A DNA stretch of 64,000 bases from a virus, in the UHGV virus genome UHGV-1366603; one strand, written 5' to 3'. The stretch's first letter is position 1, and the number at the start of each line of letters is the position of its first letter. Made by a program: the position numbers. Shown piece after piece: positions 48,001 to 54,000 of this stretch.

Positions 48001-51000
48001 ATGTTGGTCGCGCTTTATAATGCTGCTAACACTGAGCTACCGCATCAGATTACTGATAAAGAAGTGTCCTTTGGTCTCCCTACTGCGCTGGAAGGCGAAA
48101 GTAAGAATACCAAAGTTACCATGACTGCACTACCGGGTTCTGAGAATTTCAAAGGCGAAATCGAACTGCATTACGATCGTCTGGAGCCGGGTGTTGTAGG
48201 ACGGATTGAACTAACTGACGATCTGTCTCGCTGGGTTCAAGAAAATGAACTCCGCGCTTGGTTACAATATTACATCAACAAAGTAAAACCTGACGACGCT
48301 ATCGCACCAGGCGACGTTGTGTACAACACCGAAGACCAGAAAGACGAACATGAAAACGTCACTCTGCGTACCGTGACGTGCACCGTTACCGAAAAGAACC
48401 TCCGTTATAAACCGGGTGTAATGGCAACTTTCGTAATTACACCGAAGGTTGTCGATAATCGTATTGACCTGGCCACCACCAACGGTGAGTTGGACGGTTT
48501 TACTGCTTAATCGCTAAGTCAACTACTATAACAAAAAATAATAAGTTTACCTACCTCCGTAAAGGAGGTAGGTATTTTTTTGCCGCTAATTACAGCCCTT
48601 GCTCTAATGCAAACGCTTTAATTGAATCGTAATCACGGGCTTCGGCCCAAGCTCTGACTTCTTTTTTCTGTTCCGTCATTGCCTGATGCAGTTGCTGGTC
48701 GCGTTGCACAATAGCACCCAACAGTGTTTTGCACTGCTCTACCGTAAACGGTTCGATACGGGTGTTGTTGGCCGTTAACCAGTACGCTGGCGCGGTTTCT
48801 GATTGAATATAACGACTCAGCGCTACCTGTGACTTCTCATCTGCCTGGAAAGTGAAATCACCCACCTGAATCTCGGCATAGCGCGCATCCTGATAACGGA
48901 ATTCCAATGCGCTCAGGATTTTCTGAACATCGGTAAAGATATAGCGTACGGTGGAACGTAACCCCGTACGAATCTCTTCCAAGTCAATTCCCAACGTGTC
49001 GTTAACAAAGTCTTTCGCTTTCTGTAGCGTAAAACGAGCTTCGATTTCAGACATGTCGTAGTTACGCATTTGTTCCAACGCTTCACGATCAGACATCCCA
49101 TCAATCAATTTATAGTGCAGTAACGCGCAAAAACCCGTACGACCATGATCTTCGCTACCGATTTTTTCCATATAGTTACCATGGCGGTCAATCGGTAAAT
49201 CGTGCTCAAAATAACGACGACGGATTTCTTCTTTCGTTAAGCCTTCACCAGTAGCAGACATTCATCGTCTCCTTTAATCAATCCTAATTCGATTAACAGT
49301 TCAAAATCGATATGGCGGAATCTTGTATCGAAATCCGATTCCCAATCGATGCGGATACCCTGGCACTCTTCTGCCGTTAGCTCGGGAAAAATTACGGTAT
49401 TAAATTTCTCACGCTCATCGTAAAACCCATCAATCGGTGAGTTCGGGTTACGCGTTGCGAAAATAGTAATACCGGGGAAAGATAATGCTAACACAGTGAT
49501 AGACTCTGCGCTGGGTTCGCTTAAAGAGCGGCGTAGAAACGCAATTTTGTGGCGTGGGAAGTCCAATACGCGTTCTTCAAACCCTGGATTACGTTTTTCG
49601 ATTTCCGCTACCGACAGGTCAGTAAGTTCGGTGCAATACATTGGGATGATTACAGTCACGCCGTGGCGAATCATTAAACGTTTTACGTCATCAGTAAAAT
49701 CTTCACCGTTAATCATCACGTAACAACCGAATAGCTTACTGTTCTCCAGAAACTTATCCAGAAGTCGAATTCTACGCTTCGTAATATTGTTGATCAGAAT
49801 TGGTTTCATCTTTGGCTTCTCTTAATAATTTTTCCTTTTGGGCGCGTTCACGAACACAGCGTGGGCAATAACACATACTCGTGTCGTGGAACGCTTTTGC
49901 TGACGTCGTACCCATCTTCTGTTTCCAGTATTCCGCCACCATCAGTTTCGCTGTCGTCCAGCCGCACTGACGTCGCTCAGCGTGATACGCTTTACGGTCT
50001 TCCAGTGTCCCTTCACCGTTTTCGTAAGAAGCCGCAGCGCAGCTACCACAAGCGTGCTTCATCGGACAACCTAAACAAGTCTCTGGATAGTTGGTATATT
50101 GTGTTTGAATCTCTTCTAACAATTTACCGTTGTCCAGACTGACGAATTCCCGACCTACCAACTCAAATACCGCAGAACGCGACGTTACGGTTGACATAAA
50201 GCGATTGCAACCGAAGATCTTACGATCAAATCCTAAACACGTCATGTGCGTTAATGTCCCACAGAACGGACGTAAACGTTCTGGGTTCAACCGTACTGTG
50301 TCATTATAAAGTAATTGGTCACGCCAGTTCGGTTCCCAAATCGTATCGAAATCCAACCCTTCTGGAATGATATGCGATAAGATATTACGTGGGTTGGTGT
50401 GTAATCCTTTCTCGACCCAATAATCAATCACATCCATCATCTGCAATGCAATTGAAGTAGCCATGCCGCGTGGCATAATGTCTTCGAAGGTTACGTTGCC
50501 GGAGATAGTTCCGCCACCAGTAATATCAATTAATGACTTCATTCCGGCAGCATAGTACGGTAACGTTTCTAACGTAAAGGTCGCCTTTACGCCAAGCTCT
50601 GCAATGCCAACCTCTTTTAAGTAGTTATAGCCTCGTACTGCGGCTTCGTAAGAACCCTGGCGCGTCGTTGTAAAGATACGATAACGGTCATGGGACTCAG
50701 GTAAGCCGTCAATTGAAACCCCAACCGAAAGTTTGTCTTTCCAACGCTCTACGATCTCACGGTTCAACGGGCGATCTAACAACGTCCCGTTTGTGGAAAT
50801 ACTAAACATAAACGGCCGATTATGTTCTTTACACAACTGCTCGGCGGTTTCAAATGCAGCCAGCAGCAACTTAGGCTGCATGAACGGTTCACCACCGATA
50901 ATGTCGATAATAACTTCAACATTCGGTTCGTTTTTATCACGTTCAAAACAGGCGTGCAAGAAATCAACAATATCTGCCGCTTTGTTGTTACGCGGGTACT

Positions 51001-54000
51001 TACGTTCGTAACAATATTCGCAGTCCAGGTTACACGAAAGATTCGTTACAATCTGATACGTTAGCTGCTTAGGGAATTCATTTACTTGACTCATTTGCCG
51101 CCCCTCTATTACGCCCTGCCATCACTACGCGACGAATATATTCGTAAGCCTCTACACCGATAGAGAAGGCCAGTTGGTTACACCCGGATTCCAGTACGTT
51201 AGGTGCATTCTGGAGCTGGTGCTCACCACCGTCTGCATTAATCCAGAGACTTTCGCTGCAAACGTTACAGCCTTCTTCAAACACTTTACTTACCGTAAAA
51301 CCACATTCACGTCTGTTTACTACATTCAGTCGTTCAATGTTGTCCTGAACCTGATAGTAGCCGTAAATAAAGTTCATGACGTGGTCAGGTGATAACGGTT
51401 TTGGCATTTTCGCATCTAAGAGTAACGTCATTGCTCGGAAACCGTAATGGTAAATCGCGCTATGCAGCTGAATAATATCTTCATGCCAACGTTTATCCCC
51501 CAAACGGTCCCGTGTCAAGACACCCCAAGTCTGGACATTATCCAGCTCGTAGATCGTTTCCAGTGCTTCGTAACAGCCTTCGTCAATAAAGCGCATAAAT
51601 GGACGCTCAGACGACTTAAACCCATCGATGCTAACGTAGACATTGTCAAACTGTTTTAGCAACGGGAGATGCGATTTACGCATCTTTAAGCCATTGGTAT
51701 ACAACTGGTGTTTGAGTTCTGGACGAATCACTTTTAATTCGTCAACAAACGCCTCAATTTTACGGGTTGCCAGTAATGGCTCACCACCCGTCCACTGAAT
51801 TTCGGTAATGGTTGGATTAGCTTCCAACGCTTCCAAAATTCGCTCACGTTGAAACTCTCGCGGAGAATCTTCACGATTCATGTAATAGGCTCCACCGCAG
51901 AAGCTACAATCCAGGTTACACTTGGACGTAGCGACTACGGACAATACGGTGGGTTTATCGTATAAACGATTCGATAACCTTGGTTCTGCATTGGTTGTCA
52001 TTGCAGGTGACTCCGGTCGTTTTTAAATATAATCAATGGCGAACAAAGGATCGTCGTCTACGTTAGCACCAGGGGTTAACAAGAATGGAGAGTTATACGC
52101 TTCCAAAATACGGTTAAGGTCTTTATAACGGACATTTAAACGTTCTAAATCCGCTAACGTTACGTTACGGTCCAACACCGCCGACACTGCTGCTTTCTCT
52201 TCGTCAGTTAACGTGACTTTCGTCATTAAGAAACTAACGAGTTTTGCCAGATCCGCTTCTGTTGACGGATGCTCGCCAATACGTGTTTGAATCAAATGCT
52301 GCATCCAAGGCTTACGGATGCGTTTTGTGATTTCGTGCTCATCCGTCAGGGCAACCCACACAGAACGTTCACGATCCCACACGAACTTATAGCTATACGC
52401 CATTAAATCCGCTAAGCAATTAATCCCTAACGCTTCGTACCCTTCAATTTCGATATACGATTCCGTATCGAAATAGTTCTTCGTTTCTGGTGTTACCAGG
52501 GTAAAGAAATACGGGAACGAGCCTAAGTAATCCGGCGACCACCAACGACGGGCAACCGGTTTTGCACCCATTTCTTCAAACGGGGTAAAGAACAATTCCA
52601 TATCTACGGAGTTATTCAAAATCCCGTCACTAAAGAAATATTTACCTGCAACCAATTTACCACGCAACTCGGAGTCACCGGTAAAGACCACTACACTTTC
52701 TGCCGCCAGATCACGAATCTTAAACGTATTTTCTACACGATAGTTTTTACGATCGGTAAAGAAACGTCCGCGCACTTTAGGCCATTCGCCTGGCAATTGC
52801 GTCAGCAGACGAACTTCATCTGCTAAGTGTGCACGTACGGAATCAGGGGAAGAAATGTGAAGTGGATGATTGAAAATCGTTTTGTACGCTAAATGTAAAT
52901 CATTCTTCATTGATTGCTCCAACTATTTTACGGTCAAACGGACGTTCAGGGTATAGAACCCACCCCGCCATTGTCTGCCGGTAACTTGAAACTCAGCAGT
53001 AAACCCATTCGATTTACTCGGTTGCTGGTTAATCGCCATACTACCGCCGGAATTACTTAAAACCTCTAAAGAGATAGAAGCAGAAGTCGCATTACCGATT
53101 GAGTCTATCTTAAAACTAGCCGCATCTGTAAAATTGACAGTAATACCATCACCCATCGCAACTTGGGGAAAGGCTTACTTACCGCCCCCCTGCTCCCTTA
53201 CTACAGCTACCGCTGCACGACCAGCTACATCCACCGTTACAGTTGTAGTGGCTTAAAGGTAAACCGGCAAGGTTATTGGTTGAAGACACGGTACCCTGGT
53301 TTGCAATATAGTTGTTTGCGTTAGCGGTCGTAATATACCCTTCCGCTGTTACTAAACGATCACGAAGGTTCTTAAGGCTAATCACAATTACCTCCCAGAA
53401 CACCCACCGGAACAAGAACCTGAACAGCCTGAAGAACAGTTCCCTGTACACGCGTTAGAACAGCTCCCCGTGCAACTTCCTGAACACCCACCGGAGCAGG
53501 TATTCGAACATCCGCTACAGCCCGCGCTACAACCTGATACGCAGTTTGCAGAACACGAGGAACCACAACCACCGGATGCGTTTCCTGTGCAGCCACCAGA
53601 ACAACTCGAACACGTCCAGCTACAACTACCTCCGCAGTCGTAGTGATTGCGGGCCTGTCCTCCGAATAAGTCTGCGTTGTTTGTCGCTTTCCCGCGAATA
53701 TAGTTTTGTACTGCACCCGTATTCTTCAATGCAGTGCTGTCAATGTTATTTAACCGCGCTTGTAGCGCAGGTAATCCAATTGCCATTTTTCACCTCTTAG
53801 GTTGGACCAGAACAGCCGCCAGAGCAGGCACCAGAACAACCCGTAGAACAACGGCCTGAGCAAGCACCCCCACAAGTTCCGCTACAACCTGAACACCCAC
53901 CTGAACACGTTGAGCTACATCCAGTACATTGGTTACCGCACGCAGAGGAGCAGCTGCCTACACACACAGACGTACAAGTACCCGAACAGCTCGTACAACC

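Follow-up and report, generated by a model that had tools for sequence, protein, structure and literature searches.

Gene Content and Organization of the Locus

The window analyzed here is a stretch of 64,000 nucleotides (nt) from the virus genome UHGV-1366603, which derives from a jumbo phage that is kin to Salmonella phage SPN3US (Seoulvirus, phiKZ-like; ~72% nucleotide identity); Erwinia and Escherichia relatives of SPN3US also match this region. On its minus strand, at 53156-48590, lie four open reading frames (ORFs) for proteins of 77, 299, 190, and 223 amino acids (aa), which accompany short Cys-rich ORFs and two genes for radical S-adenosylmethionine (SAM) enzymes, and which a first-pass annotation had proposed to supply the peptidase, recognition, export or immunity functions of a cluster for a ribosomally synthesized and post-translationally modified peptide (RiPP). 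Our analyses have located all four ORFs on that strand and lead us to regard the block 60683-48590 (-) as probably a host-recognition module, of which the part at 53156-48590 would encode a maturation and assembly crew for tail-fiber tips made of CxxxC repeats, rather than the accessory set of a secreted RiPP.

The genes of this block (Table 1) are arranged on the minus strand in the order 1727 aa protein, 401 aa protein, Cys-rich proteins A, B, and C, 77 aa ORF, 299 aa protein, 307 aa enzyme, 440 aa enzyme, 190 aa protein, and 223 aa protein, which corresponds to the order gp168 to gp161 of SPN3US, and this order is also kept in the divergent jumbo phages L003, L005, L007, and L011-L015 (L numbers denote the loci that were compared). 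The SPN3US set gp161-gp166, which has homologues in PhiEaH2 and CR5, consists of orthologues at 52-82% aa identity in conserved order; it differs from that of the window in that the 77 aa ORF is absent and all of its members are annotated as hypothetical or "radical SAM." The 299, 190, and 223 aa ORFs are genuine genes that belong to conserved families (PHROGs 8030, 7988, and 8169, with E from 1e-55 to 1e-141) and are coupled in translation to those of the radical SAM enzymes and the Cys-rich proteins; the earlier description of all four ORFs as accessory genes holds for these three but not for the 77 aa ORF. For the first of them, the ATG at 52910 is the likely start, because it is preceded by GGAG and all of the homologues begin with MKN, and we therefore refer to its product as the 295 aa protein. 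That the four ORFs are transcribed together with the radical SAM pair and the Cys-rich ORFs, as had been presumed, is plausible, since all of them are on one strand, their junctions are short or overlapping (+21, -17, -38, and -25 nt), and a strong terminator-like hairpin directly 3' of the last gene closes the unit.

Table 1. Coordinates and characteristics of the features of the minus-strand block and its flanks in the window.
Feature	Position	Strand	Characteristics
1727 aa tail protein	55500-60683	-	SPN3US gp168 homologue by synteny; gp168 is a tail protein
401 aa coiled-coil virion tail protein	54260-55465	-	SPN3US gp167 homologue; PHROG 2163, E 1.6e-102
Cys-rich protein A	53797-54195	-	132 aa, 21 Cys, CxxxC repeats; PHROG 6085, E 1.7e-40
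Cys-rich protein B	53388-53786	-	132 aa, 20 Cys; PHROG 6085; shares homology with the C-terminus of a T7-type tail fiber
Cys-rich protein C	53179-53385	-	68 aa, 4 Cys; GTG start with GGGAGG 5' of it
77 aa ORF	52923-53156	-	Located in a variable spacer that separates protein C from the 295 aa gene
295 aa protein	52023-52910	-	299 aa (52023-52922) if read from the TTG at 52922; SPN3US gp165 homologue; PHROG 8030
307 aa radical SAM enzyme	51078-52001	-	SPN3US gp164 homologue; CNLDCSFC motif; Pfam Radical_SAM, E 6e-14
440 aa radical SAM/SPASM-type maturase	49772-51094	-	SPN3US gp163 homologue; Pfam Radical_SAM, E 3.4e-15
190 aa protein	49237-49809	-	SPN3US gp162 homologue; PHROG 7988
223 aa protein	48590-49261	-	SPN3US gp161 homologue; PHROG 8169; variable N-terminal domain and C-terminal DUF4376
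Bidirectional terminator-like hairpin	48548-48574		11-bp stem, 6 G-C pairs, T-run on both strands
Four DUF7941 (PF25613) proteins flanking the cassette	43345-44193, 44207-44704, 47337-47909, 47980-48510	+	

Association of the 295 aa Protein Family with CxxxC-Repeat Fiber Ends and Radical SAM Enzymes

The family of the 295 aa protein is small: a set of 5.8 billion sequences contains 41 clusters of it (90% identity), and 44 representative clusters (E<=1e-3) were recovered in a full hidden Markov model search of 1.84 billion sequences. Twelve of the loci compared (L016-L027) lie outside the group of the window phage and include elements with T7-type fibers as well as small and prophage-like elements (Table 2), and in all 12 of them the family member is found beside radical SAM genes. 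It adjoins the end of a CxxxC-repeat protein in 10 of the 12 loci and follows the gene for the Cys-repeat protein directly in five. The CxxxC repeat forms the C-terminus of a longer protein in 8 of these 10 loci; four of the longer proteins are typed as tail fibers by Pfam or PHROGs and the other four are fiber-like or unassigned. PHROG 8030 independently recognizes the family members of L020, L022, and L023. These gene contexts define a minimal conserved module that consists of a fiber ending in CxxxC repeats, a protein of the 295 aa family, and a radical SAM enzyme of the SPASM type. The suggestion that the 295 aa protein is a companion of the enzymes is borne out by its constant partnership with them in very different phages.

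Table 2. Gene contexts of the 295 aa family in the 12 loci outside the group of the window phage.
Locus	Source	Genes in order
L016		Cys-rich end (...YYRCEGSCSWTCSGSC...), radical SAM enzyme, family member
L017		Cys-rich end, family member, radical SAM enzyme
L018/L019		C-terminal fragment similar to the small radical SAM enzyme, then family member; contig ends
L020/L021		534 aa T7-type tail fiber, small radical SAM enzyme, family member, SPASM enzyme
L022	42-kb viral contig	482 aa tail fiber with Cys-rich end, family member, SPASM enzyme
L023	284-kb viral contig	451 aa tail fiber, family member, 686 aa fusion of both radical SAM enzymes
L024	37.5-kb viral contig	267 aa fiber, family member, SPASM enzyme
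L025-L027	Contigs of metagenome-assembled genomes (MAGs); L026 and L027 Synergistaceae	Same arrangement, with lysis genes after it in L026 and L027

Two further observations concern these loci. Two tandem paralogues of the 295 aa family (296 and 251 aa; 5914-6804 and 6779-7534) are present between two radical SAM genes in the Synergistaceae MAG L026. A 232 aa protein encoded upstream of the L024 fiber was considered as a DUF4376 protein; this was not confirmed by Pfam, and PHROGs assigns it to tail fiber assembly.

The connection between the Cys-rich ORFs of the window and tail fibers is seen most directly in the 534 aa protein of L020, which has a Phage_T7_tail domain at its N-terminus (Pfam, E 5.9e-24) and whose C-terminal part reads ...AAQLGGQPPAHYDCGGSCSWTC, followed by ~120 aa of CxxxC repeats. 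The junction that precedes its repeats reads ...HYDCGGSCSWTC, a motif of this CSWTC type is common to the longer proteins of L020, L021, and L026, and the pre-repeat segment that we propose as the docking region for the 295 aa protein reads ...NADLFGGQARNHYDCGGSCSWTC. Cys-rich protein B aligns with residues 368-470 of the L020 fiber at 51% identity (BLASTP, E 2e-21), with the pre-repeat segment within the alignment, and PHROG 6085, the family of the Cys-rich proteins of the window, matches the C-termini of the PHROG-typed tail fibers of L020, L023, and L024. The cysteines are spaced by 4 in 106 of the 128 intervals across the Cys-rich proteins and fiber ends (by 4 or 3 in protein A), the score of protein B with the TIGR04114 repeat is 20.7 bits (cut-off 20), and in the Cys-rich ORFs of the jumbo phage the repeats are preceded by a conserved region of ~45 aa. 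Orthologues of protein C (sequence ...HYNCNGGCSWSCSGSCSKGAGGR) are found in L003, L005, L007, and SPN3US, where the ORF is uncalled (L001 ~12140-12400). Judged from these similarities, the proteins that had been taken for precursor peptides, with a leader and a core destined for export, are homologous to fiber C-termini and look like tail-fiber tip modules, and they appear to be detached versions of a fiber end.

The C-type ORF is present in neither of the SPN3US GenBank records, and the A-type ORF is likewise unannotated (L001 12720-13262). In one sub-lineage, a third radical SAM gene (303 aa) is located among the Cys-rich ORFs (L014/L015 1290-2201; L009 3-302), indicating that the enzyme set of the cassette varies between close relatives.

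Relationships of the Two Radical SAM Enzymes

The best NCBIfam match of the 440 aa enzyme is TIGR04115, the maturase family of CXXX-repeat targets (E 1.4e-33, 116.9 bits), followed closely by the PapB ranthipeptide maturase (NF047865, 2.2e-33), and these two are also the best families for the enzymes of L022 and L023, which score 182.6 and 188.4 bits with TIGR04115. The CX3CX2C motif of the SPASM enzyme starts at about residue 20, without an N-terminal extension of the kind that would carry a RiPP recognition element (RRE). In L023 (8582-10642; viral contig of 284 kb) and L025 (7659-9677; MAG prophage) the two radical SAM enzymes are fused into single proteins of 672-686 aa, an arrangement that argues for their joint action. 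Divergent phages conserve the C-terminal tail (...SDQQYYEA) of the SPASM enzyme despite its overlap, in another frame, with the start of the 190 aa gene, so that the 38 nt at 49772-49809 (-) are under dual coding constraint.

Our system resembles the CXXX-repeat (TIGR04114-TIGR04115) and PapB systems in that a SPASM-type radical SAM enzyme adjoins a long CxxxC-repeat protein. It differs from them in that the scores of 117-188 bits are far below the curated cut-offs (350 bits for TIGR04115); in its substrate, which is a typed fiber's C-terminus in 4 loci, that of a fiber-like or unassigned protein in 4 more, and a small homologous protein in the jumbo phages; and in having, besides a constant 295 aa partner, another radical SAM enzyme, a barrel protein without a cluster, and a fiber chaperone. 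The CXXX-repeat families were reportedly defined by Haft and Basu in 2011 through comparative genomics, without biochemical characterization. A likeness is also seen to the His-Xaa-Ser system (HxsB/HxsC, TIGR03978/TIGR03977), in which a short-period repeat substrate is accompanied by a SPASM-type and a smaller radical SAM enzyme; the matches of the 440 aa enzyme include HxsB (E 1.7e-21) and those of the 307 aa enzyme include HxsC (E 4.8e-10). These matches are low-scoring and at the superfamily level, however, and the repeat here is one of Cys rather than His-Xaa-Ser and occurs in a phage-fiber context.

Properties of the Four Proteins of Proposed Accessory Function

The statement that the four proteins have no recognizable motif is upheld for the 77, 299, and 190 aa proteins, for which sequence and profile searches of the PDB were empty and no functional family was found in Pfam, NCBIfam, PHROG functions or PADLOC; it does not hold for the 223 aa protein, as described below. 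With respect to recognition, no Pfam match to PqqD (PF05402) or an RRE was seen at E<=1 for any of the four proteins, and none among 31 members of the 295 aa family and 26 members of the 190 aa family. With respect to export and immunity, none of the four proteins contains a membrane segment (the maximum 19-residue Kyte-Doolittle hydropathy is <1.5) or a transporter domain (Pfam), which speaks against such functions for any of them.

The predicted structure of the 299 aa protein (AlphaFold2) is confident (predicted local distance difference test score, pLDDT, 87.2; predicted template modeling score, pTM, 0.83), and its sole structural match in BFVD is its own Erwinia-phage orthologue. No Pfam family recurs among 31 family members, no NCBIfam model covers the family, its distant members included, and a tblastn search of sequenced phages with the L023 homologue gave no match. 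On the basis of these searches and the model, the family appears to be a new one, and its predicted fold a novel one. Its conserved core is a helical C-terminal region, whose helices include G212, D220, F227, K231, and E238 and which in distant members reads DRIADYGRLIxFLLSKVxLTxEEK. No Ser, Cys or His is invariant across the family, which makes a peptidase unlikely; no peptidase family was found in Pfam, NCBIfam or PHROGs and no structural match to a protease was obtained, and the proposed assignment of this protein as leader peptidase is thus left without a peptidase domain, an invariant catalytic residue or a protease-like structure. The family co-occurs with the maturase, yet it does so without an RRE sequence match, and an RRE-like subdomain may be present inside the 295 aa protein. 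We propose that this protein is a substrate-docking or chaperone subunit, a role in which it would be similar to the PqqD-like RREs, i.e., to separate non-catalytic partners of a maturase, in that it could bind the pre-repeat region.

The 77 aa ORF, by contrast with this conserved family, is missing or cut short in every relative examined. It has no match in Pfam, PHROG, NCBIfam or PADLOC and none below E 1 by tblastn in 50,697 phage records, it is the sole ORF of the operon without a Shine-Dalgarno-like sequence, and its size is unremarkable in a window that lists many spurious ORFs of 60-160 aa. A deletion of ~118 bp in the nearest relatives, L011-L013, whose flanking genes are 98% identical, has removed its start and first ~40 codons, and the remnant in L011 also contains a frameshift. 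The ORF is missing from SPN3US, L003, L005, L007, and L014/L015, where Cys-rich protein C abuts the ~295 aa gene; the 69 aa ORFs of L003 and L005 were considered as orthologues of it and rejected, as they are orthologues of protein C instead. An unrelated 174 aa ORF occupies the site in the 89%-identical relative L010 (916-1440), and the same sequence is present, uncalled, in L009; the site looks like an insertion hot spot. The 77 aa ORF is probably not a functional gene, and a variable spacer in an otherwise conserved system cannot be its recognition element; the proposal that this protein is an RRE is accordingly not sustained, as the ORF is non-conserved and decaying in relatives.

The 223 aa protein contains the Pfam domain DUF4376 (PF14301; residues 124-212; 44.4 bits with the cut-off at 25; E 2.5e-11), and it also shows weak PHROG matches to tail and tail-fiber families. 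Its gene was found by tblastn in 64 phage records, all of them of Enterobacterales jumbo phages. DUF4376 is the C-terminal domain of experimentally established intermolecular tail-fiber chaperones (viz. gp27 of Alteromonas phage V22, 195 aa with the domain at 92-184, and gp9 of phage A5, 239 aa with the domain at 138-231; PMC7289586, PMC10579305), and the H-fiber of Campylobacter CJIE1 requires a DUF4376 protein (PMC7882524). The 223 aa protein is like these chaperones in its layout, with DUF4376 (~90 aa) at the C-terminus behind a variable N-terminal part, in the location of its gene downstream of fiber genes, and in that its homologue is not a virion component; it differs in that its gene closes an operon with radical SAM enzymes rather than lying directly 3' of a fiber gene, and the likeness is at the domain level only. 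The gene is the last of the fiber operon, four genes 3' of the Cys-rich ORFs. From its sequence, the protein is of the tail-fiber assembly chaperone type, and this relationship to a phage structural function is at variance with a role in a RiPP cluster.

The 190 aa family (33 clusters) is restricted to contigs of the jumbo-phage type, and the start of its gene is conserved, as is the stretch of 38 nt by which it overlaps the SPASM gene's end. Its predicted structure is confident (pLDDT 88.7, pTM 0.84) and shows a short, partial (beta/alpha)6 TIM-barrel core resembling that of radical SAM enzymes. The comparison of predicted structures that had been suggested as a check has thus yielded a radical-SAM-like partial barrel for this protein and no known fold for the 299 aa protein. 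The protein has no CX3CX2C motif for binding a [4Fe-4S] cluster and one near-invariant Cys in the family (C184), and no match to PF04055 or another Pfam family was obtained for it or for the 26 family members that were also examined. We read it as a cluster-less barrel whose predicted fold resembles a radical SAM core. The possibility that this protein is a degenerate duplicate of either radical SAM enzyme of the cassette was rejected, as hhalign comparisons with both families gave probabilities of <1%. The gene is missing from the minimal modules of L022, L024, L026, and L027 and is therefore tied to the layout of the jumbo phages, where the Cys-rich tips come as polypeptides of their own.

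Virion Composition, Sequence Divergence, and Neighboring Genes

The virion proteins of SPN3US that are listed in Table S4 of the supplement to PMC5105663 include gp155, gp160, gp167-171, and gp173, and gp161-166 were not detected, though other proteins were counted at 3-6 spectra. The absence of gp161, gp162, gp165, and gp163/gp164 from virions indicates that the 223, 190, and 299 aa proteins and both enzymes are non-structural, as expected of maturation and assembly factors. SPN3US gp167 and gp168 are lost from tailless particles (PMC5105663) and are hence tail proteins, and gp168 has been described as phiKZ gp131-like and located at the baseplate periphery. The N-termini of the 401 and 1727 aa proteins share a weak motif (PDGPFF.../PEGPFY...), which may reflect a common baseplate-attachment domain; the BLASTP hint (E 0.13) was too weak for this candidate domain to be accepted.

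The most conserved protein of the set is the SPASM enzyme, and the 190 and 223 aa proteins diverge about as fast as the 1727 aa tail protein (Table 3), a pattern that would suit adaptors or chaperones evolving along with their clients.

Table 3. Amino acid identity (%) of the window proteins with their counterparts in four relatives.
Protein	SPN3US	L015	L007	L005
SPASM enzyme (440 aa)	82	93	65	63
295 aa protein	75	69	51	46
223 aa protein	58	62	37	35
190 aa protein	52	75	40	38
1727 aa tail protein	51	-	31	34

On the plus strand, a GH108 endolysin and a DUF1353 protein are encoded in the neighborhood besides the DUF7941 fiber proteins. DUF7941 proteins are suggested to make up a "fibre cloud" on chimalliviruses (2026 Goslar preprint), and with fiber proteins and an endolysin as neighbors, the whole neighborhood concerns host recognition and lysis.

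Interpretation and Alternative Explanations

On the interpretation that we favor, the SPASM radical SAM enzyme, aided by the smaller one, would covalently cross-link the CxxxC repeats, and the links would be expected, by analogy with PapB and the CXXX-repeat maturases, to be of the thioether type. The 295 aa protein would dock or hold the region just before the repeats and present it to the enzymes. The 190 aa protein would be a non-catalytic scaffold, which in the jumbo phages may help to couple the separate tips to the enzymes or the fiber, and the DUF4376 protein would chaperone the oligomerization or attachment of the finished tip and then leave. It is possible, and we suggest it tentatively, that many phages (viz. 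SPN3US-like jumbo phages, phages with T7-type fibers, and small phages or prophages in Synergistaceae-type MAGs) build their fiber tips from CxxxC domains that are cross-linked by phage-encoded radical SAM enzymes, with the PHROG 8030 family as an obligatory partner.

Several points weigh against the maturation of fiber tips as outlined here. The score of the SPASM enzyme is far under the TIGR04115 cut-off (117 against 350 bits), so that this family is its best match and the enzyme is not a curated member; the type of cross-link, and even any modification of the repeats, is argued by analogy; and the 295 aa family has no recognizable binding or catalytic domain, its docking or chaperone role being drawn from gene position and co-occurrence alone. 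The DUF4376 gene lies four genes 3' of the Cys-rich ORFs, and its client could be the 401 or the 1727 aa protein. In the jumbo phages, a structural role of the separate small Cys-rich proteins is presumptive, as gp166, the one annotated Cys-rich protein of SPN3US, was undetected in virions (PMC5105663). That absence is weak evidence, because the Cys-rich core offers no sites for trypsin and SPN3US carries no annotation for the A- and C-type ORFs.

The absence of gp166 and of all cassette proteins from the SPN3US virion proteome, together with the occurrence of the jumbo-phage Cys-rich proteins as separate small polypeptides, could also be accounted for by an intracellular, non-structural product, such as a metal-binding or anti-defense Cys-rich protein, for which the 299 and 190 aa proteins would serve as enzymes or scaffolds, and with a gene position that reflects late-gene timing; dense CxxxC arrays could indeed bind metals. 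We consider this explanation unlikely, as the repeat is fused to the C-terminus of a longer protein in 8 of the 12 outside loci, four of these proteins being typed tail fibers, the same CSWTC-type junction recurs in L020, L021, and L026, and the operon includes a DUF4376 chaperone gene and is situated between genes for tail proteins and for DUF7941 fibers. A direct structural role of the 299, 190, and 223 aa proteins in the tail fiber or baseplate would be in keeping with their encoding in a structural operon and with the weak PHROG matches of the 223 aa protein to "tail protein" and "tail fiber protein"; nonetheless, gp161, gp162, and gp165 went undetected in purified virions for which proteins at 3-6 spectra were reported, the DUF4376 proteins that have been studied are chaperones, and this possibility is in our judgment very improbable.

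A classical RiPP cluster, as envisaged in the first-pass annotation, would have the 77 aa protein as RRE, the 299 aa protein as leader peptidase, and the 190 and 223 aa proteins in export, immunity or tailoring of a released peptide. The SPASM enzyme is indeed nearest to RiPP maturases (TIGR04115, PapB, and SCIFF), its lack of an N-terminal RRE extension would make sense of a stand-alone recognition protein, and the short Cys-rich ORFs (68-132 aa) with their pre-repeat region of ~45 aa resemble a leader-plus-core layout. Each of the classical roles (viz. peptidase, RRE, exporter, and immunity) was tested, and none of them was found among the four proteins, a possible RRE-like subdomain within the 295 aa protein being the one exception; we regard such a cluster as quite improbable.

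Evolutionary and Functional Significance

No literature that links radical SAM enzymes to tail-fiber maturation and no published function for SPN3US gp161-gp166 was found (the subscription literature lay outside the search), and the proposed maturation of Cys-rich fibers by radical SAM enzymes would be an undescribed way of building host-recognition fibers. Eight radical SAM genes have been noted in the tail-fiber cluster of the Aeromonas chimallivirus 332-Vera, where they were termed "highly unusual" and left unexplained (PMC12390700); the maturation of fiber tips, if correct, would offer a possible explanation for these genes, although that cluster itself is not among the loci compared. It would also provide a role for SPN3US gp161-gp166 and their relatives in at least 62 sequenced jumbo phages that have the set, and the 295 aa family, with its novel predicted fold, would mark such systems in metagenomes. 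The engineering of these fibers for function elsewhere would then need the maturation crew and anaerobic Fe-S chemistry. In broader terms, this would be the first case of a radical cross-link that an enzyme installs in a host-recognition structure of a virion, and RiPP-type radical SAM chemistry would have been recruited to harden or shape receptor-binding fibers, constituting a new class of post-translational modification of virions.

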